A DNA stretch of 64,000 bases from Vicinamibacterales bacterium (lineage in GTDB: Bacteria; Acidobacteriota; Vicinamibacteria; Vicinamibacterales; JAMQPK01), in assembly GCA_963821395.1 (NCBI GenBank), contig CAWGDY010000034.1, positions 61,963 through 125,962 on the forward strand, read 5' to 3'. The position numbers were made by a program, and so were the translations under genes. Below are positions 5,199 to 62,316 of the stretch, piece after piece. The notes beneath the pieces were generated by a model. That model was not told the origin of the DNA. It searched no databases and saw only the letters and a program-made list of their open reading frames with translations. How positions within the stretch are numbered: the first letter of the stretch is position 1; the number at the start of each line of letters is the position of its first letter.

Positions 5199-5290
5199 AA
5201 ACAATAACAAGAGAGTAAGAGACTAAGAGAACAGAGGCAGGGGAATTCTGATCAAAAAGAATTCTCCTAGTCTCCTAATCTCTTGTTTGA
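5199..5290. repeat. AT-rich periodic-arm hairpin between convergent genes (AAGAG/CTCCT family)
   Basis: Left arm aacaagagagtaagagactaagag, right arm cctagtctcctaatctcttgtt, with an inner gaattc..gaattc hairpin. Related to 53150-53240. Confidence 0.65.
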
Positions 5291-5763
5291 CTACTGATCC
5301 GCCGTGCGAGATGTTCTTTGCGCCGCGTCTCAGCGGCGGCGTGCTGCGCCTTCTCTTCATCCGTGCTCACCAGGAGCGGCGGCACTTCCTCGCGCTTGCC
5401 GTCGCGTTCGAGCGTGACGAAGGTCAGATACGCGCGGCTCGTCATCTGCCGGCGTCCCGTCAGCGCCTGTTCTGCGTAGACGAGCACTTCGACCTCCAGC
5501 GACGTTCTGAACGTTGCCGTCACGCGCCCCTTCAGCACGATGAAGTCGCCGACTTTGATCGGATTCAGAAATTCGAGGCTGTCGACGGCCGCGGTGACCA
5601 CCAGCGCCCTCGCGTGGCGGAACGCCGTAATCGCCCCCGCGATGTCGATGAGGTGCATCACGGCGCCGCCGAGCATGAACCCCATCGGGTTGGCATCGTT
5701 CGGCAGCACCACCTGCACCATTTCGGTGGCCGATTCCGACGGAGGTTTGGGAGCGGCGGGCAT
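5275..5763 (-). CDS. acyl-CoA thioesterase (hotdog fold, YciA-like)
   Basis: VQVVLPNDANPMGFMLGGAVMHLIDIAGAITAFRH.. is a typical acyl-CoA hydrolase core. Confidence 0.85.
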   Translation of the reverse strand: MPAAPKPPSESATEMVQVVLPNDANPMGFMLGGAVMHLIDIAGAITAFRHARALVVTAAVDSLEFLNPIKVGDFIVLKGRVTATFRTSLEVEVLVYAEQALTGRRQMTSRAYLTFVTLERDGKREEVPPLLVSTDEEKAQHAAAETRRKEHLARRISSQTRD

Positions 5764-5779
5764 CGTTGTCGGGATGCGA

Positions 5780-6014
5780 TCAGTTGGTCGTGCGGGCGTC
5801 GAGAAACGCCTTCAGCTTCAGCCGCAGTTCCTCGGGGAGGTCGTCGTCATTGAGCGACTGCAGAAGCGTGATGGTCGACTGGAACGTACCCTACGAACGC
5901 CGTGCACTCGGAGCACCCGTTGAGGTGCTGCTCGAGGTCGCGCCGGACATCGGCGGGGAGACGCCCTTCGATGTAGTCGGAGAGAAGTTCGATGATACGG
6001 GAGCAGGCGGGCAT
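5780..6014 (-). pseudogene. small zf-HC2 (anti-sigma-type zinc finger) protein with a +1 frameshift
   Basis: Own translation gives MPACSRIIELLSDYIEGRLPADVRRDLEQHLNGCSECTAFVG.., then the next frame gives ..FQSTITLLQSLNDDDLPEELRLKLKAFLDARTTN*. Span is 235 nt (3n+1), with the shift near 5881-5895. Confidence 0.55.
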
Positions 6015-6023
6015 GTCATGCAG

Positions 6024-6108
6024 ATCTAGAATCGCAGAATGCTAAAACCTAGAATCTGAAATCTTCCAGATTCTAGATTCTAGATTCTAGCATTTCAGAT
6101 TCCAGGTT
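6024..6108. repeat. periodic-arm hairpin (AGAATCT units)
   Basis: tagaatcgcagaatgctaaaacctagaatctgaaatc faces gattctagattctagattctagcatttcagattc. It starts immediately after the stop of the Omp85-like gene. Confidence 0.65.
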
Positions 6109-9100
6109 CAGAAGTCGTAGCCGATCCAGACGGCGAACTTGACCTTGCGGAATTCCTCCTGAGCGGCGGCGCCCAGGATGTACCGCTCGTAGTCTTCGTT
6201 GAACATCGTCCGGTACGACCAGTCGAAATGCACCGGGAAGCCCAGCGCGAACGTTTCGAGCCCGATGCCGTACGACGCGCGGGCGTCGATCAGGCGGAAG
6301 CCGTCGATCCTCTGCGCAGGCCTGATGACGATGCCACCGGCGGTCGTGTCGGGCAGGGAACGTCTTCGTCCCGCTCTCCCACGGTTTGAACGTCTGGCCA
6401 TCGAGGCCCGCCCCGCCGATGTTGAAGAAGAACACGCCGCGGATGCCTCCCAGCACGCCGATCGGTGTGGCCATGGCGTTAATCAGCGGGTAGCGCAGCT
6501 CGGCGTTCCCGTAGAACGCCTTGTGACCGACGAACTGCCGGTAGTCGTAGCCGCGCATCTCGGAGTTGCCGCCGAAGAACATGTAGCCCGGCGAATCGCC
6601 AAAGCTCTTGAAGCCCACGGCACGCAGCGCGAACACGCCGTTGGCGCCGATTCGCGCGTAGTAGCGCGCGTCGGCGTCGATGGTCTGGCGCGACAGCGTG
6701 TTGCCGATCTTCGGCGCGGTTTCGAACGACAGCCGCATCGTGCTGCCCGAGAGCGGTCCGTATTCGCGGAACACGGTCGTCTCCTGGACGAACGAGACGC
6801 CCAGCGGCACCATCATGCCGCTGTTGAAGAGCCTGGTCCCGAACTCTTCTTGCTGATACCGATCGGCTTCGTCCTGAAGCAGCGGGTCGGCGAATTCCTC
6901 GTTGTAGTTGACGAGCCCGCCCGAGAACTCGACGCGGCGATACATGCTGAACGGGTAGATGCCGAACGCCGATCCGCCGCGCACCGTCTGCGTGGCGAGC
7001 GCGTCTTCGCGCCTGATGTACGGCGCCAGCGCCGGATCGTAGAAGTAGCTCGCCAGCTGCCCGTAGAAGAACTGCGTCTGCGAGTAGCCCTGCAGCGCGA
7101 ACTGCATGCGCCGCGACAGGTTGACGTACGAGAACGACAGCGTCTTGTACTGCTGCACCGACGAGGCGTACATGCTGAACTGCTGATCGCCCAGAACGTC
7201 GGTGAACGACACCATCGATCCGCCGAAGATGTCGCCGCCGCTCGTGACGCCGACGTTCACCGGCGGGCGTCCGTCGAGGAACATCTTGTCGAAACGGCCC
7301 TTCTTCGACACGTTCTCGGCGACGAGGGTGTGCTGCAGCGGCGGCTGGAAGTCGGTAATCGGCCCGGGGCTCCCGAAGTCGGCCGACGCGGCCGTGTGCA
7401 GCGGCTCCTTCAGATCGAAGGTGTGCAGGCTGTAGCTGCCTTTGTAGTAGTCGACAAACGCCAGGCGCGGATTGGCGCCGTCTTTCGACAGGACCACGGG
7501 CGAGAGCACGCCGCCGAGCGCGTCGGTGTACTGCCGCAGCTCGCCGGTCTTGAGGCTCAGCGTCCACAGGTTGAAGATGTTCCCGTTACGCGCGATTTCC
7601 GGCGACAGCGGCGTCGTCGGGTCGGTGGCCGTCGAAGAGAAGATGATCGTGTCGGTGTTCAGAAACTTGGCCGCGGCCTCGTCCTGCGTGCCGAAGGTGA
7701 GCTGCGTCTTGGCCCCTGTGTCGACATCCAGGCGGAAGAGCTTCTGCGACCCGCTGATGCGCGCGATATAGACGATGAAGCGGCCGTCGGGCGAGTAGAC
7801 CGGGCCGTAATCGCCGAACTCGTCGTTGGTGAGGTTCGTGACATCGCCGCTCGTGACATCGAGCTTGAAGATGTCGCCAATCGCGTTGCGAAGGCCGCCG
7901 AAGATCACCGAGCGGCCGTCGGGCGAGATGTTGGGCGACTCGGGATTGTCGACGCTCGCCAGGTTGAGACGCTGCTCGATCTTGCCCGTGAGCACGTTCT
8001 GCACGATGAGCGTCTTGTATTTTTCCTGACGGACGAAGTAGGCGAGGCGATCGCCCACGGGCGACCACGACATCCACCCGACCATGTTGCTGAGGCTCGG
8101 GTACGCGAGGTACTCGAATCCGCGGTCCATGTCGAAGCCGGGCGTGAGGTTGCGCACGACCGCACCGTCTTTGGCCGACACGAGAATGATGTCGAGCTCC
8201 TGATCCTTGCGGTTGCCGGTCGTCATCGCGATGAGATCGCCGGACGGGGACGGCTCTATCGAAATCGCGCCCGTATACTGCGAGCGCTCCGGATCCGGAG
8301 ACAGATCCTGTCCGTAGTCGGCCGGCCGCTCTTTGTCGCGGAACGCCTTGAACCGATCCTTCAGATACTTTTCGAACTGCTGGTCGAATTCGCGCGAGCT
8401 GATCTGAAAGGCGTCTTCGTAGGGGCTCGAGCCCCCGCCGATGGCGCTGCGCCGCAGCGAGAAGAGGAACTGCCGCACGCCGTCCTTGCCCCAGCGCGCT
8501 TCGATGAACTCGTAGAGCGCGTGGCCGAGGTTGTACACGAGGCGCGGGTTGTTGAACTCGCCGTAGCCCTCCATCTCGCTCATGCGCGGGATGATGTCGG
8601 CGACGGCGGCGTCGCGCACCGTCATGAGGTCGAGCGGATCCCAGATGCCACGCTCGTACTCGGCGCCGCCCTCGTGTACCCACAGCGGCATGTTGCGGCG
8701 GATGAGCGAGGTCGGGATGATGTCGTACTGGAACACGTGCGTCAGCTCGTGCACGATCAGCCCGTAGAGCAGGTCTGACGGGAGATCGATCGGCAGGACC
8801 ATGCGATGGCGCTCGCCTTCGGCGAAGGCCAGCACGCCTTCGGTCGAGGCGCCGGGCGCGATGTTCTGCTGCTCGAACTCGCTGTGGGTCTTGAAGATGA
8901 TGAGCGGCACGCGCTGGGCGAGGTCGTGCCGCAGGTCGGAGCTGACCTGCTGGTAGGCGCTTTCCGCGTAGCTCGCGACCCGCGCCAGGTGCTGCTCGTT
9001 CTCGGGATAGAAGTAGATTTCGAAGTGGTCCGTCTTGTACGTGTGCCACTCGAACTGGTCGTAGTGAATCTGGTTCTTGCCGTAGTACGGCGCGAACTGG

Positions 9101-10826: not shown

Positions 10827-10865
10827 TAGGGATTAGGGATTGGGGATTAGGGATTAGGGATTAGA
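10827..10865 (+). repeat. TAGGGAT 7-mer tandem array (G-quadruplex motif)
   Basis: tagggattagggattggggattagggattagggattag contains five G3-4 tracts with 3-4-nt loops. Copies are at 17975-18015 and, inverted, at 19081-19113; 26331-26363 is partial. Confidence 0.75.
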
Positions 10866-11708: not shown

Positions 11709-11816
11709 CGAATCTGAACAGAAGATCAGAAGGTCAGAAGAAACTTGAATCTGGAAGATCAGTATCAGTCAACTTCTGATCTTTAGATCTTCAGTTTTAG
11801 TTTTTAGATCTTCAGG
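11709..11816. repeat. periodic-arm hairpin (AGATC/GATCT units) between convergent genes
   Basis: gaacagaagatcagaaggtcagaag..ctggaagatcag faces cttctgatctttagatcttcag..tagatcttcagg. Confidence 0.65.
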
Positions 11817-12887: not shown

Positions 12888-12948
12888 CCCGCCTTCGCGC
12901 GCATCCGCCTTCGCGCCGTCTGCGCACATCGCTACGGCGAGACAGGCC
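12888..12948. repeat. dispersed repeat family B (reverse orientation)
   Basis: The reverse complement ggcctgtctcgccgtagcgatgtgcgcagacggcgcgaaggcgga matches copies at 39287-39405. Confidence 0.65.
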
Positions 12949-12961: not shown

Positions 12962-13687
12962 CTAACGCGCCAGGAAGTGTTTAGGTATCGGCGTCCACGC
13001 GTGGCGACCTTCATAGAAGAGCGGCTTCCGATTGGGATGTCGCTCCTTGAATTCGCGATATCGCCGCCGGAACTCGCGGAATCGTGCGTCCGGCATCCCG
13101 AGCGGCTGGTGCCTGGTGTCGAGCAGCATCCGCTCCACTTTCCACACGTTCCTTCCGGACAGGCGCCAGTCGTAGGCACCCATCACGCGAAGATCGACCA
13201 GCGCGAAGGCCGTGATGCGTCCGGTGAGGTCGACGTACTCGTCGAGGTAGCTGGCGGCCAGCGCCCGCGGCGTCGCGAAGACCGGCTTGCGTCCGTGCAG
13301 CCCCGGGTCGCGCGACCGCGCGACGGAGCCCCAGCAAACATCGTCGATCATCGATCGGCGATCGTCCATCGTCTGGGGCGCCGACGATGGACGATGGACG
13401 ATGGACGATGGACGATGTTGGTACACGAAAATCACGTGGTCGAGCTCGTCGATCGATTCGAAGCTGATGACGAGCGGCGGATACCCGTGCTGCTCGAGCA
13501 CCGTTGCCGCAAACAGCGCCGCCTCGAGGCAATGCGCCGTCCGATGACGGACGACGCCGCGGAAGCTGCGCAGCGTCGCGCGACCGGGTGGCGGCTCCGT
13601 GTTGTAGGGGAGCGCGTTGAGGTAGCGCTGGACGGCCAGCGGCGTCCGCAGCCTGGCGACGAGCCGACGCTCGGCGCGTGATGTCAG
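12962..13687 (-). CDS. conserved hypothetical, possible papain/transglutaminase-like thiol enzyme (AHCLEAA motif), carrying an in-frame palindromic insertion
   Basis: The frame stays open from the SCO1 stop: (L)TSRAERRLVARLRTPLAVQRYLNALPYNTE..RTAHCLEAALFAATVLEQHGYPPLV.. No ATG/GTG/TTG occurs before 13501; CTG at 13687 is the best start candidate. Family assignment is tentative. Confidence 0.45.
   Translation of the reverse strand: MTSRAERRLVARLRTPLAVQRYLNALPYNTEPPPGRATLRSFRGVVRHRTAHCLEAALFAATVLEQHGYPPLVISFESIDELDHVIFVYQHRPSSIVHRPSSAPQTMDDRRSMIDDVCWGSVARSRDPGLHGRKPVFATPRALAASYLDEYVDLTGRITAFALVDLRVMGAYDWRLSGRNVWKVERMLLDTRHQPLGMPDARFREFRRRYREFKERHPNRKPLFYEGRHAWTPIPKHFLAR
13337..13420. repeat. 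intragenic imperfect palindrome (GATGGAC tandem arm), 84 nt, in frame
   Basis: acatcgtcgatcatcgatcggcgatcgtccatcgtc / tggggcgcc / gacgatggacgatggacgatggacgatggacgatgt. It encodes ..QHRPSSIVHRPSSAPQTMDDRRSMIDDV.. inside the ORF. Confidence 0.7.
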
Positions 13688-13717
13688 CGCGCCTCGGCCC
13701 TTCGACGCTGAAGGGCG

Positions 13718-14594: not shown

Positions 14595-16176
14595 ATGAGC
14601 AAAGGGAAAACTCGTCGTATCGAGATCATGGATACGACGCTTCGCGATGGCGAGCAGGCCGAAGGCATCTCGATGATGCCCGAAGAGAAGCGCACCATCG
14701 CGCAGCGGCTGCTCGAGTCGGTCAAGGTCGATCGCATCGAGGTGGCCTCGGCGCGCGTCAGCGAAGGCGAACGGCGTGCGGTGAAGGCGATTATCGATTA
14801 CGCCGAGTCGAAGGGTCTCGCGAGCCGCGTCGAGATTCTCGGATTCGTCGATGGCAACCGATCGGTCGACTGGGCGAAATCGGTGGGCGCCCGCGTGATC
14901 AATCTTCTGACGAAGGGCTCGCTGCATCACTGCCGCGAGCAGTTGAAGAAGACGCACGAGCAGCATCTCGACGACATCCGCAGGACGATCGAGTACGGCG
15001 CGAAGAACGGCATCACGTTCAACGTCTATCTCGAGGACTGGTCGGGCGGCATGCTGCACTCTCCCGACTACGTGGTCGAGCACATCGACGCGCTCACCCA
15101 CATGCCCGTGCGCCGCATCATGCTGCCCGATACGCTCGGGCTGCTGCGCCCGGCGCAGGTGCGCGATTTCGTGAGCCAGATCATCCGCCGGTTTCCCGGG
15201 CCCCATTTCGACTTCCACGGCCACAACGACTACGGGCTGGGCACCGCCAACACGCTCGAGGCGGCCACTCGCGGGCGCCCACGGCGTGCACGTCACCGTC
15301 AACGGGATGGGCGAGCGCGCCGGCAACGTGACGCTCGACGAGGTTGTCGTCGCGCTGCGCGATCATGCGGGCATCAGAACGGCGGTCGACGAGCGATCGT
15401 TGTCCGAAGTCAGCAAGCTCGTCGAAGTGTTCTCGGGCCGCCGCGTGCCGGCGAACAAGCCCATCGTCGGGGAGAACGTGTTCACGCAGACCGCGGGGAT
15501 TCACGCCGACGGCGACATGAAGGGCAATCTCTACGAGAGCCGGCTCACGCCCGCGCGCTTTGGCCAGCACCGCACCTACGCGATGGGCAAGCTGATGGGG
15601 AAGGCGAGCCTCGACTTCAACCTCGAGCGGCTGAACATCGCGCTGTCGGCCGAGCAGAAGCAGCAGCTTCTGGCGCGCATCGTCGAGCTGGGGGATCAGA
15701 AGAAGAGCGTCACGCAGGCCGATCTGCCGTTCCTGATTTCAGAAGTGCTGCAGACCCGCGAGCTGCGCGTCTTCGAGGTGAAGGACTACTCGGTTGTCAC
15801 GAATCGCGGACTGCGGCCGACCGCGACGCTGCTCGTGCGCTACCGCGACCGCGAGCTGCACGCGACCGGATTCGGCGACGGCGGCTACGACGCCTTCATG
15901 CAGGCCCTGAAAAGCATCGAGAAGCAGCTGGGCTTCGAGCTGCCGAAGCTGCTCGATTATGAGGTTAGAATCCCACCGGGCGGCAAGACCGACGCCCTGG
16001 TGGAGACCACCATCAAGTGGGAAGGGGGCATGAAGACCCGCGGCGTGCACAGCGATCAGCTCGCGGCGGCGATTCAGGCCACGGAACACGCCATTAACAT
16101 GATCGCGCTGCGGAGCGCGCCACCTGCGAAAGGCACGGGTCACGGGCCAAGGGGCGAGGGGCGCTCAGAGGGATGC
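14595..16176 (+). CDS. cimA: (R)-citramalate synthase, Leptospira CimA type (one +1 frameshift; no stop of its own)
   Basis: IMDTTLRDGEQ, VDRIEVASARVSEGE, ILGFVDGN, NLLTKGSLHH, HFDFHGHNDY, then the next frame gives VNGMGERAGN, LVEVFSGRRVPANKPIVGENVFTQTAGIHADGD, YEVRIPPGGKTDALVET. An extra G lies near 15272 (cgcgggcgcc). Confidence 0.8.
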
Positions 16177-16791: not shown

Positions 16792-17163
16792 ATGGGTCGC
16801 AGGCTGTATGTCGGCAATCTCCCCTACAAAGCCACCGATGAAGATTTAATGTCGCTGTTCAGCACGGTCGGCGACGTGGCAAGCGCCCGCGTCATGCGGG
16901 ACATGGCCACCGGCCGGGCGCGCGGATTCGGCTTCGTCGAAATGACGACGGACGAAGCGGCACAGAAAGCGATTGAGAAGCTACATCAGCACCAGATGGA
17001 CGGGCGCGCCATCGTGGTCAACGAGGCGCAGCCAAAACCGGCGGGCGGCGGACGGCCGTTCGGCGGCAGTGGCGGCGGCTACAATCGTGGCGGCGGCGGC
17101 GGCGGCCGCGGCGGCGACGATTACGGCGGCTCCGGCGGCGGGCGTCGGGAACCTCGCTGGTAA
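16792..17163 (+). CDS. RRM-type RNA-binding protein with Gly/Arg-rich tail
   Basis: RNP2 LYVGNL, RNP1 RGFGFVEM, tail GGGYNRGGGGGGRGG..GGGRREPRW. Confidence 0.85.
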   Translation: MGRRLYVGNLPYKATDEDLMSLFSTVGDVASARVMRDMATGRARGFGFVEMTTDEAAQKAIEKLHQHQMDGRAIVVNEAQPKPAGGGRPFGGSGGGYNRGGGGGGRGGDDYGGSGGGRREPRW

Positions 17164-17173
17164 AGACATCAGG

Positions 17174-17285
17174 GCATCATTGGCAGATTGGCAGAGTGGC
17201 AGATTGGTAGAGTCGCTCACTCACGCCTCGGACATATCCGCTGAGTCCTGCGAGCTCTTAGCCAATCTGCCAATTCCGATGATCC
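17174..17285. repeat. periodic-arm hairpin (GGCAGATT units)
   Basis: catcattggcagattggcagagtggcagattggtagag faces cttagccaatctgccaattccgatgatc. The right arm contains the DUF72 start codon. Confidence 0.6.
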
Positions 17286-17993
17286 TGCGTCGGCACTTCC
17301 GGCTACAACTATCCTGAATGGAAGGGGAGCTTTTACCCGGCCGATCTTGCGGCCGCGAAGATGCTCCCTTACTACGCGGCGCGGTTTCCCACCGTCGAGA
17401 TCAACTACACGTTCTACCGGATGCCCACGGAGAAGCTGCTCGCGGGGTGGACCAGGCAGGTACCGCCCGCGTTCAGATTCACGCTGAAGGCTCCCCGGCG
17501 GATTACGCACGACGCGAAGCTGGTCAACTGCGAGAAGCTGACTGCCGAGTTCTGCCACGTCGCCGGCACGCTCGGCGATCAACTCGCCGCGCTCCTGTTC
17601 CAGCTGCCGCCGTCACTGAAGAAAGATCTCGCACGGCTCGACGCGTTCATCGACACCCTGCCGCCGAAAGCGCCGGCGGCCTTCGAGTTTCGCCATCCGT
17701 CGTGGTTCGACGAAGAGGTGTTCGGCCGCCTGCGAGACCGGGGCCGGGCGCTGTGCGTGGCCGACAGCGAGAAGCTGGAAACGCCGCTCGAGGTGACCGC
17801 CGACTTCGGCTATTTCCGCCTTCGCGATGAAGGCTACCAGGCGGATGACATCAAGGAGTGGGCACGGAGGATTGGCGCGCTCGGCGATCGCTGCAGGGAA
17901 ATCTACGTGTACTTCAAGCACGAAGAGCAGGGCCTCGGGCCGGAGTTCGCCCGACAGCTGATGAAACATCTGGGACTGGGGAGTGGGGATTAG
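17278..17993 (+). CDS. DUF72 (YecE-like) family protein, +1 frameshift at codon 3-4
   Basis: ATG ATC C[T]G CGT.. Removing one nt gives MIRVGTSGYNYPEWKGSFYPADLAAAKMLPYYAARFPTVEINYTFYR, the canonical DUF72 N-terminus. The stop TAG lies inside the TAGGGAT array. Confidence 0.8.
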
Positions 17994-18056
17994 GGATTGG
18001 GGATTAGGGATTGGGTCAGTCGCAAGTCACAAGTCGGCAGTCAGAAGTCGCAAGGC
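17975..18056. repeat. left composite arm: GGGATT array + AGTCGCA-type array
   Basis: ggggattagggattggggattagggattggg + tcagtcgcaagtcacaagtcggcagtcagaagtcgcaagg. An inverted counterpart is at 19030-19113. Confidence 0.7.
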
Positions 18057-18264
18057 GAACCGGTCGTCCCACAGTTCGACGTAGCGCAATCCGATGTGTG
18101 CCTTCGGGCGGACAGGTAACGCTAGGCGACTAAGCATTACTGATGGCGTAAGCTTCGCCTGTCACTAGCGTTCTGAGGGGATTGCTTCGCACTGGCAGGG
18201 CGTGAGCGATGTTCTGGGTAACGGATTGCCGAACGCCACGAGTCTCATCAGAGGAGGCAACCGA

Positions 18265-18627
18265 TTGAAGTGGTCGCTGACCACACTGCCGTTGTTGGCG
18301 CTGTTCGCTTTCGTTGCAGGATGCCAACAAGCTGGGGGGCCGGCCAGAGCGACCGCGCGTCAGCAGGTTCACGAGTTCACGCCAGCTGCCTTCTACAACG
18401 AGTTCTCTCCCACGACGCCGCCAGTTCTTCGTGTCGCGCGGAGACACGAGCGACCAGGACTGACGCAGCCGGGATCGGCCGTGTGTCGGGGACCAGGGAC
18501 ACCAGTCGCAGTGCTGACCGCGCATCGTGTGAACCGCGCCGTCGCCGTCGTGCAACGACACGCGCGCGGCTCGGGTAAAGAAGGATTCCGGAACGAGGCG
18601 TTGAGGGGCGACCCAGCCGCTGATTGA
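18265..18627 (+). pseudogene. decayed lipoprotein gene remnant (possibly acetamidase/formamidase-like N-terminus)
   Basis: GAGGAGG lies 7 nt before TTG at 18265, followed by a lipoprotein signal (M)KWSLTTLPLLALFAFVAGC and ..FYNEFSPTTPPVLRVA. After that the sense is spread over three frames (RGDT / TRTDAAGI..). Family guess is weak. Confidence 0.35.
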
Positions 18628-19029
18628 GCTCGGTCATCACCCATGATCGAGCCCGTAGCGACGAATACACAACGCGCCAAGGGGCGGGGAGCTGAACAAC
18701 GGTCGCGACATTACCAGGGGCGGAGAGGAGTTCAACAAGCCTATCAATCACAACATGAGGGTCTACCTCAAGACCTCAGTGGATCGTGCCAACGCCGGGA
18801 GAAAATCTCGAACGCGCCTCTCTGCTCGACGTTTCAGGGTAGCCCGCTTACTCTCTGGCCAAATGGCTGACGCGCACCTTCACGATGGCGGGGAAGTCTG
18901 GACCTCGATAACAGAGGCGAAGCCGCTCGATAGAGATAACTCCCGATAAACGCCGCTGCGTTTACCGACCGAGTCCCGCCCTCTGTTGTCGCTAAATGGG
19001 TGTAAAGCGCGCCAGCGCATGTGCACACA

Positions 19030-19113
19030 AGGTGCGACTTCGACTTGAGACTGTCGACTTTCGACTTGCGACTTGAGACTGCTAATCCCCAATCCCTAAT
19101 CCCCAATCCCTAG
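19030..19113. repeat. right composite arm (inverted): AGTC-type array + CCCTAAT array
   Basis: The reverse complement tagggattggggattagggattggggattag + cagtctcaagtcgcaagtcgaaagtcgacagtctcaagtcgaagtcgca mirrors 17975-18056. It ends 4 nt from the hydrolase stop. Confidence 0.7.
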
Positions 19114-19116
19114 TTT

Positions 19117-23653: not shown

Positions 23654-23682
23654 CCAGGCAGGGCTGAAGCCCTGCGCTACCG
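23654..23682. repeat. REP-like family A copy (reverse orientation)
   Basis: ccaggcagggctgaagccctgcgctaccg. Confidence 0.65.
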
Positions 23683-23704: not shown

Positions 23705-23785
23705 GCAATCTTGCCGTCAGCAATCTTCAATCAATCTGCCAATCTACCAATCTCACAATCTGCGAATTCACGATTCACCAACTCG
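23705..23785. repeat. CCAATCT-family array at the 3' end of the TPM gene
   Basis: caatcttgccgtcagcaatcttcaatcaatctgccaatctaccaatctcacaatctgcgaattcacgattcacc. Confidence 0.6.
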
Positions 23786-25267: not shown

Positions 25268-25318
25268 TTCAGTCATCGGTTATCAGTCATCAGTTATCAG
25301 GCGTCAGTCGTCAGTTGC
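25268..25318. repeat. direct tandem array (CAGTCATC/CAGTTATC units) in a divergent promoter region
   Basis: ttcagtcatcggttatcagtcatcagttatcaggcgtcagtcgtcagttgcc; no inverted partner seen. Confidence 0.55.
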
Positions 25319-27163: not shown

Positions 27164-27171
27164 TCACGGAC

Positions 27172-27323
27172 GGTTCGTCAGGTTCGTCAGGTTCGTGAAG
27201 TTCGTGAGGTTCGTTGGTTCGTCGGTTCGTCGGTTCGTGGAGTTCGTAAAGTTCTGAGGTTCGGCCAACTTGTCGAACCTGCGAACCTACGAACTCCACG
27301 AACCCAACGAACTTAACGAACCC
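27172..27323. repeat. ~150-nt periodic-arm hairpin (GGTTCGT / ACGAACC units)
   Basis: About 12 GGTTCGTn units, then cgaacctgcgaacctacgaactccacgaacccaacgaacttaacgaacc. It follows the stop of the second RRM gene. Confidence 0.75.
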
Positions 27324-27328
27324 CATTC

Positions 27329-28287: not shown

Positions 28288-28304
28288 GGGGTAATCCTAT
28301 CAGA

Positions 28305-28364
28305 GGGCTTAGGGCTGAGGGCTGAGGGCTGAGGGCTGAGGGCTCAGGGCCGAGGGCTTAGGGT
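28305..28364 (+). repeat. GGGCTGA 7-mer tandem array (about 9 units; strong G-quadruplex motif)
   Basis: gggcttagggctgagggctgagggctgagggctgagggctcagggccgagggcttaggg, between divergent yggX and gdh. Confidence 0.8.
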
Positions 28365-29825: not shown

Positions 29826-31909
29826 CGCACCATTGGTAGATTCGCAGATTGGTAGATTGGGAGATTACGAAGAAGTTCCTTGCGCCTTTGTGTCTTTGCG
29901 TTGAGACGAAGCATTTCCAGTAACGCCACTTGCACGCGCGCGTCGTTGAAGCACGCGCCGCCGCCGAGATCGGTCAGCGAATCGGGGACGAGCGTGTTGG
30001 CGGTCGACTGATTCCAGGTGCTCTTCCGCCATAACCCCTTCGGCAGCGAGACGGTGCCTTCCCGGATCGCGTCGTCTATTTTCACCGCGCATTGCACTTC
30101 GCCCAGCTCGTTGAACATTCTGATCGGATCGTCCTGTTTCAGGCCCCGCGACGCGGCATCGGCCGGGTTCATCACGACCGCGACTCCGGGCCGTGGCAGC
30201 TCGCCGAGCGTCGAGCTGATGGTTTTGTCGCTCGCCGGCGAGATGAGCGCGAGCGGAAACCGTTCCGAAGACGGATCGTCCTGGTAGGTGTACAACCCGG
30301 TCGGCGCTTCCGCTTCGAGCGCCTCCGGGAAGAGATCGACTTTGCCGTCGAACGTCCTCGGCATGACGTCGACGAACTGAACGGGGCGCAATCCAAACGG
30401 GGGGACGGCCTGGCCCGTGTCGCCGATCTGCGTGCCGGCATCGCCCGGCAGCGCCTTGAACACCTCGAGCAGCATGTCGAGCTCGTTGTCGGTTTCACCG
30501 GATTCGAGCAGGTCCATGCGTTTCGCGAGCTCGCCGAAGACCTCGGGATTCGATCGCGACTCGCCCACGGTGTCGATGACCGGCCTCACGAGCTGCAGGC
30601 TCAGCGGCCCGTACCCTTTCGCGAAATCGTACGCTTCGAGAAATGTGGTGGCCGGCAGGATGACGTCGGCGTATGCCGCCGTGTCGGTCATCACCTGATC
30701 GAAGACGACGGTGAAGAGATCGTCGCGTGCCATGCCCTGGAGCACGCGCTGCTGATCGGGCAGGGTCGCGACCGGGTTGGCGTTGTACACGAACATCGCC
30801 TTGATGGGCGGATCGGAGGGTTCCGTCAGCGCGCGTCCGAGCTTGTTCATGTTCACGATGCGCGTGGCCGGTTCGGGGCCCAGCCAGGGCTTGGTGATAT
30901 TCCAGGCGCTGGAATTGCTCATCGAGTAACCGCCGCCGCGCACGCCGAACTTGCCGGCCACCGCCGGCAACGCCAGAATCGCCATCGCCGCATTTCCGCC
31001 GTTGCGATTGCGCTCGAGTCCCCAGCCGCAGCGCACGAGCGCAGGCGACGTGCTCGCGTAGTCCTGAGCCAGCTGGTGGATCGCGGCCTCCGGGACGCCC
31101 GATATTTCGGCCGCGCGCTCGATCGTCCATGCCGCCGCTCGACCGCGGAGACGCTCGGCGCCCCTGGTGTGCGCCGCGATGAACCCGGCGTCGGCAAGCC
31201 CTTCCTCGAACAGATAACGATGCATCGAGAGCGCGATGGCGACGTCGGTGCCCGGTCTGGGTGCGATGTGGAGATCGGCCTGACGCGCGAGCGGCGTCGC
31301 ACGCGGATCGATGACGATGAGCCGGGCGCCCTGCTTCTGCGCCTGCCGGACGTACGGCACCAGGTGAATGCCCGAGGTCGAAGGGTTGACGCCCCAGAGA
31401 ATGATGAGGCGCGCTTCAGGGTAGTCCTCGTAGGTGACGCACGGCATCTTTCCGTACATCGCCTGTGCCGCGGTGCCCGTCGGCGCCGCGCACACCGTGC
31501 GCCCCAGACGGGACGTGCCGAGGCGCCGGAACAAAATCGCGTCCAGCGTGTCCTGCGTCAGCAAGCCGTTCGAGCCGCCGTAGGAAAACGGCAGGATCGC
31601 TTCCGGGCCCCACTTCTCCCGTACCTCATTCAGACGACCGACGATCATCTCGAAGGCTTCTTCCCAGGTCACGCGAGAGAAACGGGCCTGGCCTTTCGGG
31701 CCGCTGCGCACGGCGGGATGGCGCAGCCGCGCCTCGCCGTACACGCGGTCGCCGAATTTCCTGACCTTCGCGCAAATGTATCCGCCCGTCGGCGCGTTGA
31801 GCATCGAGCCGTCGATGCTGACGAGGCGTCCCTCGCTGACGGTGACGGCGAGACTGCAGGAATCAGGACAGTCGAGAGGACAGGCGGTGTCGACGACGAC
31901 GTTTTCCAT
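29798..31909 (-). CDS. molybdopterin (bis-MGD) oxidoreductase, DMSO-reductase superfamily
   Basis: N-terminal 4Fe-4S motif [11 protein letters not shown], then molybdopterin-binding blocks throughout. The last ~45 aa (..[18 protein letters not shown]..) are read from the repeat spacer and overlap gdh by 28 nt. Confidence 0.85.
29832..29868. repeat. TAGATTG/CAGATTG array
   Basis: attggtagattcgcagattggtagattgggagattacg. Confidence 0.6.
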
Positions 31910-33021: not shown

Positions 33022-33180
33022 AGGTTCCAGAGTTCCTGTTCCGGTTCCTGTTCTGGTTCCGGTTCCGGTTCCGAGTTCTGGTTCCTGTTCCGGGTTCGGT
33101 TCCGGAATCGAGTTCTGGCTCCAGAACCGAACAGGAATCGGAACCAGAACTGGGAACTGGAACCGGAACCCGGAACCGGG
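33022..33180. repeat. ~160-nt periodic-arm hairpin (GGTTCC / GGAACC units) between convergent genes
   Basis: ggttccagagttcctgttccggttcctgttctggttccggttccggttccgag.. faces ..ccagaaccgaacaggaatcggaaccagaactgggaactggaaccggaacccggaaccgg. Confidence 0.75.
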
Positions 33181-33198
33181 TGCGAAGCGGTTACAGAG

Positions 33199-34654: not shown

Positions 34655-35551
34655 GTGTCCAGCAAAATCGGATTCATTGGTCTCGGCATCATGGGCAGGC
34701 CCATGGTGAAAAATCTGTTGAAAGCCGGCCACCAGGTGACCGCGTACGACATCGTGCCCGCGGGGCTGGAGGACGTCGTCGCGGCCGGGGCGCAGAAGGG
34801 TTCGTCGCCGAAGGATGTGGCCAGTAAGACCGACATCGTCATCACGATGGTGCCGGATGGGCCCGAGGTGGAGCAGGCCGTCCTGGGCCCCAACGGCGTC
34901 CTCGAAGGCGTGAAGAAGGGCTCGACGGTGATCGACATGAGCTCGATCAGCCCGATGGTGGCGCAGAAGGTGGGCGCGGCCCTCGAGGCCAAGGGCGTCG
35001 ACTTTCTCGATGCGCCCGTCAGCGGCGGGGAGCCCAAGGCGATCGACGGCACGCTGGCCATCATGGTCGGGGGCAAGAAAGAGGTCTTCGACAAGATGGA
35101 GCCGATCCTGAGGACGATGGGGGCGACCGTGACGCTCACGGGCAAGGTGGGTGCGGGCAACGTGACGAAGCTGGCCAATCAGATCATGGTCGCCGTCAAC
35201 ATTGCCGCGATGAGCGAAGCCCTGGCGCTGGCGACCAAGGCGGGACTCGATCCGGAAGTCGTGTTCAATGCCGTCAAGGCCGGTCTGGCCGGCAGCACCG
35301 TGCTGAACGTGAAGGCGCCGATGGTGTACTCGCGCAACTTCAAGCCCGGCTTCCGCATCCGCCTCCATCAGAAGGACCTGCGCAACGCGCTCCTGGCGGC
35401 CGAGTCGCTGAAGGTGTCGCTGCCGCTGACCAGTACCGTGCAGAACATGCTCATCGATCTGATGAACAACGGCAAAGGCGACCTCGACCATTCGGCCATC
35501 GTGCAGGTCATCGAGCAGGCCTCGGCGGTCGAGGTGAAGAAGCCGAGTTAG
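34655..35551 (+). CDS. NAD(P)-dependent 3-hydroxyisobutyrate / tartronate-semialdehyde reductase family oxidoreductase
   Basis: GTG start; IGFIGLGIMGRPMVKNLLKAGH..DAPVSGG..AG.G...K..NQ pattern of the 6-PGDH-like beta-hydroxyacid dehydrogenases. Confidence 0.85.
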   Translation: MSSKIGFIGLGIMGRPMVKNLLKAGHQVTAYDIVPAGLEDVVAAGAQKGSSPKDVASKTDIVITMVPDGPEVEQAVLGPNGVLEGVKKGSTVIDMSSISPMVAQKVGAALEAKGVDFLDAPVSGGEPKAIDGTLAIMVGGKKEVFDKMEPILRTMGATVTLTGKVGAGNVTKLANQIMVAVNIAAMSEALALATKAGLDPEVVFNAVKAGLAGSTVLNVKAPMVYSRNFKPGFRIRLHQKDLRNALLAAESLKVSLPLTSTVQNMLIDLMNNGKGDLDHSAIVQVIEQASAVEVKKPS

Positions 35552-35643
35552 TCGCAAGGCGCAGGTCGAAAGTCGGGAGGCGCAAGGCAAGTCGGAAGGC
35601 GCAAGCGGGAATGCGGTAGCGCAGGGCTTTAGCCCTGCCAGGG
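35550..35643. repeat. GCAAGG/AGTCG array followed by a REP-like family A copy
   Basis: gtcgcaaggcgcaggtcgaaagtcgggaggcgcaaggcaagtcggaaggcgcaagcg + gcggtagcgcagggctttagccctgccaggg. Confidence 0.65.
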
Positions 35644-36096: not shown

Positions 36097-36171
36097 CAGC
36101 GCTCGTTGAAGTGCGTCTCGTTCCCACATGTAGGGGATAACGCTGGAAGGGGTGGGGGTGAACAGAGGGGG

Positions 36172-36462
36172 GCCGGTTCCGGTTCCGTTCGGGTTCCGGT
36201 TCGGGTTCCGGTTCGGTTCCTGTTCCCGGTTCGGTTCCTGTTCCCGGTTCGGTTCCCGTTCCCGGTTCGGTTCCCCTTCCGGGTTCGGTTCCCGTTCCGG
36301 GTTGGGTTCGCCGTTCCTGGTTCCTGGTCCGTGGTGCGGGCCCACGAACCTACGAACCGATCACGAACCCAGAACGAACTCCACGAACTCCACGAACTCC
36401 ACGAACCGACCGAACCAGAACGTTCCCGGAACCGGGATTGGAACCGGAACCGGAACCCGTCG
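36172..36462. repeat. ~290-nt composite low-complexity block: GGTTCC-type array, CGAAC-type array, GGAACC array
   Basis: 36172-36330 (cggttccggttccgttcgggttcc..), 36340-36420 (cacgaacctacgaaccgatcacgaaccc..cacgaactccacgaactccacgaacc), 36420-36460 (ggaaccgggattggaaccggaaccggaaccc). Confidence 0.75.
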
Positions 36463-41493: not shown

Positions 41494-41502
41494 ACTGGCG
41501 CA

Positions 41503-41607
41503 CTATTCGCAGATTGGTAGATTGCGAGATTCGCAGATTACGAGGTTCGCGGAGTTCAATCTGACAATCAATCTGCGAATCTACCAATCTGCCAATCTGC
41601 GAATTCA
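41503..41607. repeat. periodic-arm hairpin (CAGATTGG / CCAATCTG units) between convergent glcE and glcD
   Basis: cgcagattggtagattgcgagattcgcagattacgagg faces caatctgacaatcaatctgcgaatctaccaatctgccaatctgcgaattc. Confidence 0.75.
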
Positions 41608-43056: not shown

Positions 43057-43130
43057 GGGCCTGAGGTTTGGATAGTAGCATGGCAGGCGCGCCGTCCCGC
43101 CGCCCGGGAAACGGTTCCGGGATCCGTTTT

Positions 43131-53149: not shown

Positions 53150-53240
53150 CGAATACGAAAACAGGAGGTTAGGAGATTTGGAGAAAGACTTTCTTCGAAA
53201 AAAATTCTCCTAGCCCTCCTAGTCTCTTATTCTCCTGTTA
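53150..53240. repeat. AT-rich periodic-arm hairpin between convergent genes (AGGAG/CTCCT family)
   Basis: aaaacaggaggttaggagatttggagaaag faces aaattctcctagccctcctagtctcttattctcctgtt; shares attctcctag with 5199-5290. Confidence 0.65.
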
Positions 53241-53251
53241 ACGGACACGCG

Positions 53252-59839: not shown

Positions 59840-60633
59840 TGACCGACGCTGTCAGACACGCGCTGAACGGGAAGGTCGCAATCGTGACGGGCGCAAGCCG
59901 TGGCATCGGAAGGGCGATCGCGTTGAAGCTGGCCGCACAGGGAGCCGTGACGGTTCTCTGCGCGCGTAACGCCGAGACGCTGCAGTCCGTTGTTCGCGAG
60001 ATTACTTCCGGTGGGGGACAGGGCGACGCGATTGCGCTCGATCTGCGCGCTCCGGAAGCTCCGGCGCTCCTGGTGGCCTTCGCGCTGGACAGGTTCAAGA
60101 CAGTCGACATCGTCGTCAACAACGCGGGCGCCACCAAGCGCGGCGACTTTCTGTCGCTCACCGACGACGACTTTCTCGACGGGTTCGCGCTGAAATATTT
60201 CGGAGCGGTCCGTCTGGTTCGCGCCGCATGGCCCCACCTGAAGGCGACGAAAGGATCGATCCTGAACATCGCGGGCATCGGCGGGCGCACGCCCGGTCCC
60301 GCGTTCACAATCGGTGGATCGGTCAACGCCGCGCTGCTGTCGTTCACGAAGGCGCTTGCCGCGATGGGTGTGGCCGATGGCGTGCAGGTGAACGCCATCA
60401 ATCCTGGCTCGATTCGAACGGATCGCCTGAAAAAGCGGCTGGCCGATCTCGCATCACGAGACGGCACCGGGTTGCTCTCGGCCGAGCATCGATTCGTCAC
60501 GGCAGAGCAGGTGACGCGCATCGGGGAACCCGCCGATATCGCCAACCTCTCGGCGTTCATCGTCGGACCGGAAGGCCGCTACCTTCACGGCGCGCTCATC
60601 GATATGGACGGCGGGGCCATGAAATCGATCTAG
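59839..60633 (+). CDS. SDR-family oxidoreductase (FabG-like)
   Basis: VTGASRGIGRAIA; NNAG; the ATG overlaps the previous stop by 1 nt. Confidence 0.9.
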   Translation: MTDAVRHALNGKVAIVTGASRGIGRAIALKLAAQGAVTVLCARNAETLQSVVREITSGGGQGDAIALDLRAPEAPALLVAFALDRFKTVDIVVNNAGATKRGDFLSLTDDDFLDGFALKYFGAVRLVRAAWPHLKATKGSILNIAGIGGRTPGPAFTIGGSVNAALLSFTKALAAMGVADGVQVNAINPGSIRTDRLKKRLADLASRDGTGLLSAEHRFVTAEQVTRIGEPADIANLSAFIVGPEGRYLHGALIDMDGGAMKSI

Positions 60634-60686
60634 ACGAGATGCCGGGTGCGGCTGACGGACGAATGTAATATGCTCGGCCGCACACC

Positions 60687-62225
60687 GTGCCGGACGCCAT
60701 TGTCCCCATCGCCCTGATGCTCACCGCCGGACTTGTGGCGGCCCTATCCCTGAGAGAGCGCATCATCAATCGCCGGCTGTCGAGCGATATTCGAGTCGCG
60801 CATCAGCGCCTTCGTCTCGCCCTCGAGGCGGGCAAGGCCGTCGCGTGGGACTGGGACGTCAAGAGCGGCCGCGACACCTGGTTCGGCGATCTGAAGACGA
60901 TGTTCGGCATCCCGGGCGACCTCTACGAGGGAAGGGTCGAGGATTTCCACGCGCGTGTCCATCCCGACGATCGGGAGCGCGTGGGGCAGGCCGTGGCGGC
61001 CGCCAGGCGCGATCGCGCGATGTACAACGCGACGTTCCGCGTGCGCTGGCAGGACGGAACGGTGCGCTGGGCCGCGGCGCACGGGCGGTTCTACTACGGC
61101 GCCGACGGCGAGCCGGTTCGCATGCTGGGCATCGCCGAAGACGTGACCGAACGCACGCGTGCCGAGGCAGCGCGAAGAGAGACCGAAGCGCGGTTTCAGT
61201 TGATGGCCGACGGGGCGCCCGTGTTCATCTGGCTATCGGATTCCGACAGGCGCCGCACCTACGTCAATCGCCCGTACCTCGAATTTACCGGCGGAGCGCT
61301 GGAGACGGAACTGGGCAGCGGCTGGACCGAGAGTGTGCACCCTGAGGACGTGAAGCACTGCGTGATGACGTACGCCCGGGCGTTCGACCGGCGCCGATCG
61401 TTCAGGATGGAGTACAGACTGCGACGGCACGATGGCGTCTATCGCTGGTTGCTCGACACCGGTGTGCCGCGATTGTCGGCAGACGGAGAATTCGCCGGCT
61501 ACATCGGTTCCTGTGTCGACGTCACGGAAGAGAAGCTGGCCAAGGAAGCGCTCTCGCGTCTGAGCCGCAGGCTGATGGAATCCCAGGAATCGGAACGTAT
61601 CGGGCTGGCCCGGGCGCTGCACGACGACCTGGCTCAACGCATGGCGCTCCTGACCATCGAGCTGGAAACACTCAGCCAGGTGTTGCCTCGCCCCAGCCAG
61701 TCCGACGACGTGCGCACCAGGTTTCGGGCGTTGAACACTCACGCCGTCGAATTGGGACGGGACATTCAGGCCATTTCTCAGCGGTTGCACTCGTTCAAGC
61801 TGGAGTATCTCGGCATCGCGGTAGCGGTCGAGGGTTTCTGCCGGGACGTCTGCAAGCAGGAACACGTGGAGATCGAGTTCAAGTCGTCGGGCATTGCCGA
61901 TGACCTGCCGAAGGATGTCGGACTCTGCCTCCTCCGCGTGCTCGAGGAGGCGCTGGCCAACGCCGTCAGACATGCCCGTGTGGGGCACTTCAAGGTCCTG
62001 CTGCGCGGGACCCGCGACGAGATCCAGCTCGAGGTCATCGATCGCGGCGTCGGCTTCGATCTGGATGAGGCGATGGGCAGCCACGGCCTGGGCATGACGA
62101 GCATGCGCGAGAGGCTGCGCCTTGTGAACGGCGCCATGGCGGTCGAATCGAGACCGGGCGCGGGAACGACCGTGCGCGCCCGCGTACCGCTGCGCTCTCC
62201 CGGTCGCGACGTCGTGCTGCACTAG
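60687..62225 (+). CDS. PAS-domain sensor histidine kinase (HisKA_3 / NarL-partner type), no adjacent response regulator
   Basis: One TM helix, two PAS-like repeats (..YRVRWQDGTVRW.., ..YRLRRHDGVYRW..), ESERIGLARALHDDLAQ, C-terminal HATPase (GLGMTSMRERL). Confidence 0.85.
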   Translation: MPDAIVPIALMLTAGLVAALSLRERIINRRLSSDIRVAHQRLRLALEAGKAVAWDWDVKSGRDTWFGDLKTMFGIPGDLYEGRVEDFHARVHPDDRERVGQAVAAARRDRAMYNATFRVRWQDGTVRWAAAHGRFYYGADGEPVRMLGIAEDVTERTRAEAARRETEARFQLMADGAPVFIWLSDSDRRRTYVNRPYLEFTGGALETELGSGWTESVHPEDVKHCVMTYARAFDRRRSFRMEYRLRRHDGVYRWLLDTGVPRLSADGEFAGYIGSCVDVTEEKLAKEALSRLSRRLMESQESERIGLARALHDDLAQRMALLTIELETLSQVLPRPSQSDDVRTRFRALNTHAVELGRDIQAISQRLHSFKLEYLGIAVAVEGFCRDVCKQEHVEIEFKSSGIADDLPKDVGLCLLRVLEEALANAVRHARVGHFKVLLRGTRDEIQLEVIDRGVGFDLDEAMGSHGLGMTSMRERLRLVNGAMAVESRPGAGTTVRARVPLRSPGRDVVLH

Positions 62226-62231
62226 AAAGGC

Positions 62232-62316
62232 AGTTTTCAGTTCTCAGTGGTCAGTCCTCAGTCTGAAGCCCACTGAAAACTGACGACTGAGAACTGACAA
62301 CTGAGAACTGACAACG
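62232..62316. repeat. periodic-arm hairpin (CTCAGT / ACTGAG units)
   Basis: 62238-62265 versus 62283-62310 is complementary at 25 of 28 positions by hand alignment. Confidence 0.75.

Follow-up and report, generated by a model that had tools for sequence, protein, structure and literature searches.

Hairpins whose two arms are imperfect tandem arrays of 6-9-nucleotide (nt) units stand at the ends of genes in a 64,000-nt stretch of DNA from a soil acidobacterium of the order Vicinamibacterales (contig CAWGDY010000034.1, positions 61,963 to 125,962; the whole stretch is referred to here as the window). We found that at orthologous spacers of related genomes the hairpin persists and its unit family changes; the architecture is conserved and the sequence is not, as a first-pass annotation of the window had proposed. 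We give about an even chance to the reading that this gene-end stem-loop is selected, as a putative terminator or protector of RNA 3' ends, and that its repeat arms would be a by-product of slippage, with the two arms kept complementary. The elements belong to the long simple-sequence repeats (LSSRs), with units of 6-9 nt, mostly 7 and 8.

Hairpins built of short-unit arrays

Arrays were called with Tandem Repeats Finder (TRF) at periods of 6-9 nt and at least 2.8 copies and were then merged; 20 dinucleotide-preserving shuffles served as the control. The window (G+C 64%) gave 28 merged arrays and the shuffles 1.7 on average. Period 7 accounted for 17 rows, period 8 for nine, and periods 6 and 9 for three each; higher-order periods of 14, 16, 18 nt and more were common in the arrays. 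Non-coding DNA makes up 13.5% of the window, yet it holds 79% of the array bases. TRF reported an array at every coordinate where the first-pass annotation had listed one, and the unit families named there (GGTTCC, GGTTCGT, CAGATTGG, an AGGAG type and AGTCGCA) are correct and are among those of the window. The units consist of a conserved 5-6-nt core and 1-3 variable linker positions. Thus, 19 of the 20 mismatches within arrays of AGATT-NNN units fall at positions 4-6, and 12 of the 14 within arrays of ACTGA-NN units fall at positions 6-7 (pooled core/linker test, p = 0.013).

Eleven compact hairpins, each an array followed by a reverse-complement array, were found in the window. They comprise all ten spacers for which this arrangement had been claimed and one more at 13337-13419. 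Because of the arrangement, either strand can form a long, imperfect stem-loop in several pairing registers, which lie half a unit apart because the same core repeats in both arms. At 62228-62318, for example, three registers score 0.74-0.76 and no single pairing is best; the several registers are also visible as a low ensemble frequency of the minimum-energy fold. As RNA, the eleven hairpins fold better than shuffled controls, as had been expected, with z-scores of -2.7 to -10 (100 shuffles, both strands). As DNA, eight of them gave z-scores of -2.2 to -8.7 (200 shuffles). The poorest folds were those at 11709-11816 and 53150-53245. A scan of the window against Rfam 15 at the gathering score gave no matches. 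The eleven hairpins, all entered without strand, are as follows.

5206..5287: array hairpin with AAGAGACT / CTCCTAAT-type arms and an inner GGAGAATTC stem, between convergent genes with stops at 5198 and 5275; RNA z -4.8, DNA z -5.5
6024..6107: array hairpin of TAGAATC / GATTCTA units, 1 nt past the stop (6108-6110, minus strand) in the conserved frame of a Tricorn-like protease gene; RNA z -7.1
11710..11812: array hairpin of CAGAAGAT / GATCTTNA units in a convergent spacer; RNA z -2.7, DNA z -2.2
13334..13422: array hairpin of (CATCGTC)n / (GACGATG)n, in frame within an open reading frame (ORF) of 251 amino acids; RNA z -6.9
17176..17283: array hairpin of ATTGGCAG / CAATCTGC units (AGATTGGN family) with a 50-nt loop, 3' of an RRM-protein gene (stop 17163); z -4.8; the orthologue in relative L082 retains the AGATTGGN family
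27168..27324: array hairpin of GGTTCGT(N1-3) / ACGAACC(N) units, 4 nt past the stop (27329) of a minus-strand gene; z -7.7
33023..33183: array hairpin of GGTTCC / GGAACC units, with the DUF3810 gene (stop 33008) on one side and a convergent small K/A-rich gene (33193-33473, minus strand) on the other; RNA z -9.8
36165..36461: composite asymmetric hairpin in a convergent spacer; left arm of about 165 nt with GGTTCC/GGTTCG units, right arm with ACGAACY units and then GGAACC units; RNA z -4.4
41505..41604: AGATTGGN-family array hairpin whose 35-nt arms are 91% complementary, occupying the whole convergent spacer from 41493 to 41605; z -9.9, DNA z -8.7
53151..53232: array hairpin of AGGAGATT / CTCCTA-type units in a convergent spacer; weak fold, RNA z -3.7, DNA z -2.65
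62231..62315: array hairpin of CAGTNNT / ACTGANN units, 6 nt past the stop at 62225; RNA z -6.1

When the array hairpins of the window and of all other loci were taken together, the 5' arm was purine-rich in 23 of 30 (p = 0.005). This polarity is identical on both strands because the element is palindromic. The gene at 16792-17163 encodes a bacterial RRM-domain RNA-binding protein, and the spacer downstream of it carries one of the AGATTGGN hairpins listed above.

Position at gene ends

The placement test rests on a gene map of the window curated from codon statistics, Pfam matches and the gene calls of syntenic contigs, because automated gene calling over all 125 loci misclassified known cases and was too noisy. 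Hairpins occupy 7 of the 12 convergent junctions, 4 of the 40 co-directional junctions and none of the 12 divergent junctions; convergent junctions differ from all others (4 of 52) with a Fisher p of 3e-4. Arrays of either kind, paired or single, are found at 9 of the 12 convergent, 9 of the 40 co-directional and 2 of the 12 divergent junctions. A hairpin starts 1-15 nt past the stop codon or overlaps it, and usually fills the whole of a convergent spacer. The placement in spacers at gene ends, as first described, thus stands for gene 3' ends; it fails for the hairpin at 13337-13419, which is inside an ORF, and for the single arrays at 25269 and 28303, which lie in divergent spacers. Two spacers, at 34106-34654 (549 nt) and 27668-28020 (353 nt), contain no array, Rfam match or called gene.

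Canonical terminator-like sites, namely a hairpin plus a T run, were not enriched in about 60 kilobases (kb): 12, 12 and 13 were found against 14.0, 13.8 and 12.3 expected, and nearly all were intragenic. None of these 37 sites (about 40 expected in total) coincides with an array hairpin. The array hairpins have no T runs, and their arms of 24-70 nt contain periodic mismatches. The description of the elements as free of U tracts and far longer than intrinsic terminators was therefore accurate. A short palindrome resembling the repetitive extragenic palindromes (REPs), GCAGGGCT-NN-AGCCCTGC, has four copies in the window against 0.02 expected, all of them 3' of genes. Another short motif, GCGCGAAGGCGG, was found 10 times against 2.9 expected and clusters in two spacers (12889-12916 and 39322-39405); similar clusters are present in relative L086.

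Turnover at orthologous spacers

About 40 related Vicinamibacterales contigs were used in the comparison overall. L001 and L035 are metagenome-assembled genomes of Acidobacteriota/Vicinamibacterales that are syntenic with the window at 17-41 kb; their genes have 73-84% nucleotide identity to those of the window, and their glutamate dehydrogenases are 86-88% identical to that of the window. L081-L086 were gathered via a conserved hypothetical protein (window 12962-13717), and L087-L125 via the DUF3810 gene. An exact-sequence look-up of one window protein matched no record.

Spacers orthologous to those of the window in L001, L035, L082 and L085 again contain an array or a hairpin, often built of another unit. 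Hairpins of the TAGAATC and AGGAG types recur in relatives. The fullest comparison was obtained for the spacer 3' of the DUF3810 gene, which was readable in about 35 relatives; in nearly all of them, a hairpin begins at the stop codon. The unit is GGTTCC in the window and in L087, L088 and L089, GAGGGCA at 11 loci, AGATTGGN at 10, GGGGTAA at five, and GAGAGCA and GGGCTNT at one each. Two relatives have no array there: L093 carries a REP-like palindrome, akin to GCAGGGCT-NN-AGCCCTGC, and L103 a plain palindrome. On an approximate (neighbour-joining) tree of the DUF3810 protein, AGATTGGN and GGTTCC each mark one clade, GGGGTAA is found at four tips and GAGGGCA is widespread. GAGGGCA is probably the ancestral unit at this spacer. 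Judging from their sequences, the G-rich families look like stepwise derivatives of one another, and AGATTGGN and GGTTCC look like outright replacements.

Close relatives show how the arms change. L087 and L088 are 95-96% identical; between them, one arm differs by the loss of a single unit and the other by the loss of about 41 nt, a slippage-type change in each arm separately. These unit-scale differences, together with the 14-, 16- and 18-nt periods, bear out the earlier suggestion of slippage. In the AGATTGGN clade, the outer stem of the hairpin is unchanged and inner parts have been lost through deletions of 41-75 nt. The first-pass annotation had set unit turnover against compensatory change as the outcomes to be looked for at orthologous spacers; turnover was found, and no compensatory change was seen in the AGATTGGN clade.

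Arrays within coding sequences

The hairpin at 13334-13422 lies in frame inside the conserved hypothetical ORF of 251 amino acids (12962-13717, minus strand). Homologues of 76-93% identity all have the same flanks around this insert (...FESIDELDHVIFVYQ and WGSVARSRDPGLHG...). At the same codon position, some lineages have a (CATCGTC)n/(GACGATG)n hairpin of 84 or 81 nt, and another lineage has a single unit and its complement, 18 nt in all; L083 has one unit per arm, and the window has five. Other inserts at this position are a 63-nt perfect REP-like palindrome in L082 (8886-8948), a single (AGCCCTC)9 array, a single (GTCCAGA)10 array, and two copies of a small hairpin. The element inserted in frame in the L082 protein is the palindrome GGAAACGGTTCCGGGATCCGTTTT that is found in the window spacer at 43100-43130. 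In L081-L086 and the window, the insert lengths at this hypervariable site (18-84 nt) are all multiples of 3. Since unrelated inserts are found in frame at one codon position, the array-making process acts wherever an insertion is tolerated.

Arrays also reach the ends of proteins. A Mo-oxidoreductase ORF, convergent with its neighbour, reads through a ATTGGTAG array (29798-29940), which makes its C-terminus about 36 amino acids longer. The last four residues of the DUF72 protein have been overwritten by GGGATTN units (17972-17993), so that the protein ends in ...HLGLGSGD* versus ...HLGLPTPG*. A K/E-rich tail (26354-26513) is encoded by a CTTTTTC array (26404-26485) and does not align with L001.

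Unpaired arrays and the unit vocabulary

Some arrays of the window have no partner arm. Those at 3527, 10827, 23705, 25269, 28303, 29832 and 35550 fold no better than shuffles. Four of them (3527, 23705, 29832 and 35550) had been listed as members of hairpin families; the arrays are present there, and the partner arm and the excess folding are not (z about 0). There is a tendency for single arrays to stand 8-50 nt upstream of a start codon. In one further case, the arms are split: two loci at 18016 and 19030, which had been taken for separate AGTCGCA loci, are the two-tier arms of one inverted pair, the twelfth of the window, 85-94% complementary and about 1 kb apart. The single arrays, the split pair and the REP-like palindromes are as follows.

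3527..3565, plus strand: single GGTTCC-type array without partner arm; z -0.6
10827..10864, plus strand: single (TAGGGAT)5 array, from the stop of an anti-sigma gene to the start of an AhpC-like gene
23705..23767, minus strand: single AGATTGGN-family array, with a gene stop (23775) on one side and a REP-like palindrome (23658-23675) on the other
25269..25315, no strand: single TCAGTCA/TCAGTTA array, the reverse complement of TAACTGA-like units, in a divergent spacer
28303..28363, plus strand: single (GAGGGCT)8.7 array in a divergent spacer, 20 nt 5' of the start codon of glutamate dehydrogenase
29832..29866, plus strand: single ATTGGTAG array inside an insertion of about 90 nt (29826-29924) found in this genome only
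35550..35605, plus strand: degenerate single AGTCGCA-type array, from a stop codon (35551) to a REP-like palindrome (35621-35638)
17972..18054, no strand: split pair, left arm, (GGGATTN)6 and then (AGTCGCA)5, overlapping the final 22 nt of the DUF72 gene
19033..19114, no strand: split pair, right arm, (TGCGACT)7 and then (AATCCCN)4, ending just ahead of the stop at 19117
841-858, 920-937, 23658-23675 and 35621-35638: REP-like palindrome GCAGGGCT-NN-AGCCCTGC; two of the copies follow a single array

In relatives, the spacer orthologous to 10827..10864 has a single (CCAGCTN)7 array instead in L085, and the (GAGGGCT)8.7 array is missing in L001 and L035. In the case of the split pair, the orthologous spacer is 60 nt long in L082 and about 110 nt in L035. 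The segment of about 1 kb between the split arms (18055-19032) has no Pfam match, lacks codon periodicity and is without a relative among the fetched loci; it may be a decayed gene, to judge from a lipoprotein-like start near 18270. In L001, the spacer orthologous to window 17994-19116 contains a 1.3-kb insertion (496-1812) with inverted repeats of about 50 nt at its edges and ORFs without a Pfam match, which may be an insertion-sequence-like element. It has no similarity to 18055-19032. The one tRNA call in the window, an ARAGORN tRNA-Ser (anticodon ACT) at 23867-23956 on the minus strand, lies inside a predicted coding region rich in CCG repeats and is probably a false positive.

The 57 arrays of the window and its close relatives reduce to 40 canonical units, and AGATTGGN, GAGGGC(A/T), AGTCGCA, GGGATTN and GGTGCGATN, among others, recur at independent loci or in independent genomes. 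Members of a family have only the unit in common, with no shared ends or internal sequence, which argues against transposable copies. Units with AACT/AGTT, CAAC/GTTG or ACTG/CAGT came up about twice as often in arrays from several phyla as they did among shuffled units (38 loci; z 2.8-3.8), which recalls the TAACTGA and cyanobacterial STRR heptamers of other phyla; this is a weak signal from multiple tests without correction. Dense arrays of 7-9-nt units, including hairpins of an array and its inverse, are also found near the glutamate dehydrogenase gene in four other lineages: Pyrinomonadaceae (L042, TGGACAG x50 facing CCACTGT x8), Blastocatellia (L018, 9-mer arrays), Flavihumibacter (L048, about 20 arrays, or 25 TRF rows, in 21 kb), and Pedobacter (L060, dense arrays of 7-9-nt units).

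Possible explanations

In the reading that we put at even, the stem-loop would be a conserved and selected feature, the gene-end hairpin of the lineage, which would stop transcription in both directions, shield RNA 3' ends from exonucleases, or both; in other bacteria, this role is filled by intrinsic terminators and REP elements. Each arm grows or shrinks through replication slippage, by one unit or a block of units at a time, as is seen in the unit-scale indels that separate close relatives, and the 6-9-nt loops that slippage forms may escape mismatch repair. Selection for pairing, perhaps with template switching inside the hairpin, would hold the arms complementary. The units would drift, become homogenised and occasionally be replaced outright, and the position would therefore be conserved and the sequence would not. 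Templating within the hairpin had been raised in the first-pass annotation; in a mirror-copy test of the arms, several registers were nearly as good as the best, so that both arms are built on a common core without one being an exact mirror copy of the other, and the test did not show templating. The strongest argument for selection is that a hairpin is near-universal at one spacer despite total replacement of its sequence, including by palindromes without repeats.

Several observations weigh against selection on the stem-loop. Folding energies in four co-directional spacers were better for the sense strand in two and worse in two, showing no strand asymmetry. Automated typing of junctions over all fetched loci, a crude classification, gave only a weak depletion of divergent spacers, and L035 has a GTTTACC/CGGTAAA hairpin at the divergent 25269 site. 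The U tract is absent from the array hairpins, and, to our knowledge, termination by stems without one is disputed for any bacterium. Arms often differ greatly in length (165 vs 115 nt at 36165, about 95 vs 30 nt in L088, and 354 vs 55 nt in L042), and their lengths change independently between L087 and L088. The AGATTGGN clade is the only one in which a hairpin could be aligned; it varied too little there and gave no compensatory pairs. One hairpin lies within a conserved ORF, as described above. Single arrays require a separate account, and simple slippage in place explains neither why the same few families return at unrelated loci and genomes nor why 23 of the 30 hairpins have a purine-rich 5' arm.

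The strongest arguments for a purely mutational origin are the hotspot of in-frame insertion, the arrays that stand single, the arms of unequal length, and the lack of both strand asymmetry and covariation. A lineage-wide bias would make, expand and invert 6-9-nt arrays by snap-back or template switching, and the arrays, with no role in transcription or RNA stability, would be a neutral or selfish by-product. They would accumulate where insertions are tolerated, namely in gene-end spacers, permissive protein loops and C-termini, and no DNA of a genome is known to tolerate insertions better than convergent spacers do. The unrelated arrays, hairpins and palindromes at one codon position, with lengths in multiples of 3, the C-termini overwritten or extended by arrays, the commonness of single arrays, and arms that change independently all agree with such an origin. 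It does not account well for a convergent spacer that bears a hairpin near-universally across about 34 relatives despite complete turnover, including non-repeat palindromes, for the absence of hairpins from all 12 divergent spacers of the window although single arrays are tolerated there, or for an outer stem that is invariant while inner parts are deleted. We consider a by-product without function possible, and unlikely rather than implausible.

The arrays might also be binding sites, or non-B DNA with a regulatory role, either as G-quadruplexes or as targets of cold-shock, S1 or RRM-type proteins that read a 5-nt core in each unit. The conserved core with 2-3 variable linker positions (pooled p = 0.013), the purine-rich 5' arm, the GGGATTN, GAGGGCN and GGGGTAA arrays with at least four G3 runs, and single arrays 8-50 nt 5' of start codons, as for TAACTGA and GGGNATC arrays (PMC4679880, PMC4692102), are consistent with this. 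It is made improbable by at least 12 unrelated cores in one genome, by the replacement of one core by an unrelated one at the same spacer, by the inability of most families (AGATTGGN, GGTTCC, GTTCGT, ACTGANN, AGTCGCA and TAGAATC) to form G-quadruplexes, and by the pairing of the array with its own complement in hairpins. Slightly less probable than binding sites are non-autonomous mobile elements, either resembling MITEs (miniature inverted-repeat transposable elements) or REP-like and moved by a tyrosine transposase, that would insert at gene ends and sometimes in frame. Such elements would fit the recurrence of unit families at unrelated loci and in different genomes, the outright replacement of families at orthologous sites, the in-frame insertion hotspot, and sites that are filled in one genome and empty in a close relative, as with the roughly 90-nt insertion at 29826-29924. 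Against them, family members agree neither in their ends nor in internal sequence or length and share no target duplication, the G-rich families grade stepwise into each other, and no transposase or REP-associated tyrosine transposase (RAYT) gene was found among the ORFs scanned against Pfam in these 64 kb of the genome. An artefact of assembly or sequencing, which the first-pass annotation had allowed for, is hardly credible: dozens of assemblies, made independently in different studies and with different assemblers, show this architecture at orthologous sites, and arrays within genes keep the reading frame. The one point in its favour is that two conserved genes of the window are frameshifted relative to their orthologues, at about 6370-6385 (Tricorn-like protease) and about 15106-15260 (HMGL-like synthase); the assembly thus has indel errors, or these are pseudogenes.

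We also considered a wider proposal, which we hold to be rather doubtful, a shade more so than the neutral by-product. Gene-end hairpins may be made in a way of their own in Vicinamibacterales, and perhaps in other lineages rich in arrays such as Pyrinomonadaceae, Chitinophagaceae, Xanthomonas and heterocystous cyanobacteria; they would be putative terminators or 3'-end protectors free of U tracts. Their arms would be continually rewritten by unit slippage together with inverted copying (snap-back or template switch) or ectopic templated copying that draws on a stock of units spread over the genome. Such rewriting would explain why the same unit families come back at unrelated loci, why the 5' arm is purine-rich and why arrays spill over into permissive protein loops.

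Should the hairpins coincide with transcript ends, they would reveal how a large, mostly uncultured soil lineage terminates or protects its transcripts without canonical terminators, and operon boundaries in metagenome-assembled genomes could be read by a simple sequence rule. They also offer a natural case of conserved structure with sequence turnover, in which the balance of slippage, arm homogenisation and selection is measurable from dozens of relatives. The same array process yields new protein segments and C-termini.

Comparison with known systems

The stem-loops of REPs and of bacterial interspersed mosaic elements (BIMEs) lie at gene 3' ends and convergent junctions and are thought to stabilise the upstream mRNA or to punctuate transcription. 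The window hairpins are likewise extragenic and at gene 3' ends, and true REP-like palindromes are found here at equivalent sites and can replace an array hairpin. However, REPs have one consensus of about 35 nt per genome, whereas the window elements share only architecture and unit vocabulary. With 40 canonical units among 57 arrays and no single palindromic consensus, identity with REP/BIME is rejected, and the distinction drawn in the first-pass annotation is upheld. Intrinsic terminators include bidirectional ones, and stems without a U tract have been proposed for high-GC bacteria. The window hairpins resemble them in their position immediately past stop codons, two-strand symmetry and high stability, and differ in having 25-70-bp stems (5-14 bp and GC-rich in intrinsic terminators), periodic mismatches, loops of up to 50 nt (3-8 nt in intrinsic terminators) and no U tract. 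Rickettsia palindromic elements were reportedly found inserted in frame in genes by Ogata et al. in 2000. The hairpin at 13334-13422 is similarly tolerated in frame in a conserved protein; the Rickettsia elements have a consensus of 100-150 nt, whereas here unrelated arrays, hairpins and palindromes occupy one site, depending on the lineage.

Some other identities were rejected. The units are contiguous and without unique spacers, unlike those of a CRISPR array. Members of a family share only the unit, with no terminal inverted repeats, target duplication or full-length alignability, which excludes MITEs. An account by G-quadruplexes alone fails because four or more runs of at least three Gs, with short loops between them, are found only in the GGGATTN and GAGGGCT arrays of the window, and G3 runs are missing from the AGATTGGN, GGTTCC, GTTCGT, ACTGANN, AGTCGCA, TAGAATC and AGGAG-type arrays. 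Template switching at quasipalindromes is an established mutational route (PMC7202029) and homogenises inverted-repeat arms (PMC8604942). Its likeness to the present case is that changes are copied from one arm to the other; it is, however, a mutational mechanism and not a class of element, and its signature of exact mirror arms was not found in the window hairpins.

Heptamers of the short tandemly repeated repetitive (STRR) type are said to have been described in cyanobacteria by Mazel in 1990. MacGregor (2015) reported TAACTGA arrays upstream of start codons in Beggiatoaceae, Cyanobacteria and Bacteroidetes (PMC4679880). The window resembles both in having heptamer arrays in spacers, often just upstream of start codons, and it has (N)AACTGA(N) units at 25269 and 62231-62315. 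The TAACTGA arrays differ in being nearly all direct, with one inverted case in the Orange Guaymas 'Maribeggiatoa' genome, and in their interpretation as translational signals.

The first-pass annotation knew of no described class of elements with this combination of features. Such a class has been described: according to the summary in PMC4679880, Mrazek et al. (2007) defined LSSRs with 5-11-nt units, heptamers being the commonest, and suggested polymerase slippage as their cause. Rehm et al. (2015) found that the GGGAATC arrays of Xanthomonas lie between genes, no more than 50 bp from an ORF end and rarely between divergent ORFs, vary among species at the same gene pairs and are mostly transcribed; two genomes each have 70-75 convergent array pairs that could form stem-loops, and G-quadruplexes were favoured, with no function found (PMC4692102). 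The GGGGA(C/T)T arrays of Nostoc are also heptameric LSSRs (PMC4692102). Beyond Rehm 2015 and MacGregor 2015, we found nothing in the literature on GGGAATC or TAACTGA arrays or on the function of cyanobacterial heptamers, and no published description of a many-family, hairpin-dominated system with unit turnover, or of any such system in Acidobacteriota.

Like the Xanthomonas and Nostoc LSSRs, the window arrays are tandem units of about 7 nt, intergenic, near stop or start codons and scarce between divergent genes, and they are found at the same gene pairs in related species with highly variable length and sequence. The Xanthomonas GGGAATC pairs have the G-rich arm 5', the polarity of the window hairpins, and the window has GGGATTN arrays as well. 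In contrast, the window has at least 12 unrelated unit families of 6-9 nt, most of them unable to form G-quadruplexes; hairpins dominate its convergent junctions, families replace one another at a fixed spacer, and arrays are found in frame in a protein. Iteration above chance, dominance of heptamers, intergenic bias, variation at the same gene pair and convergent pairs, by which LSSRs are recognised, were all found here. The feature of the window thus extends a known, poorly understood class of repeats and is not a new class, and it joins scattered reports of heptamer arrays in Xanthomonas, cyanobacteria, Beggiatoaceae and Bacteroidota.

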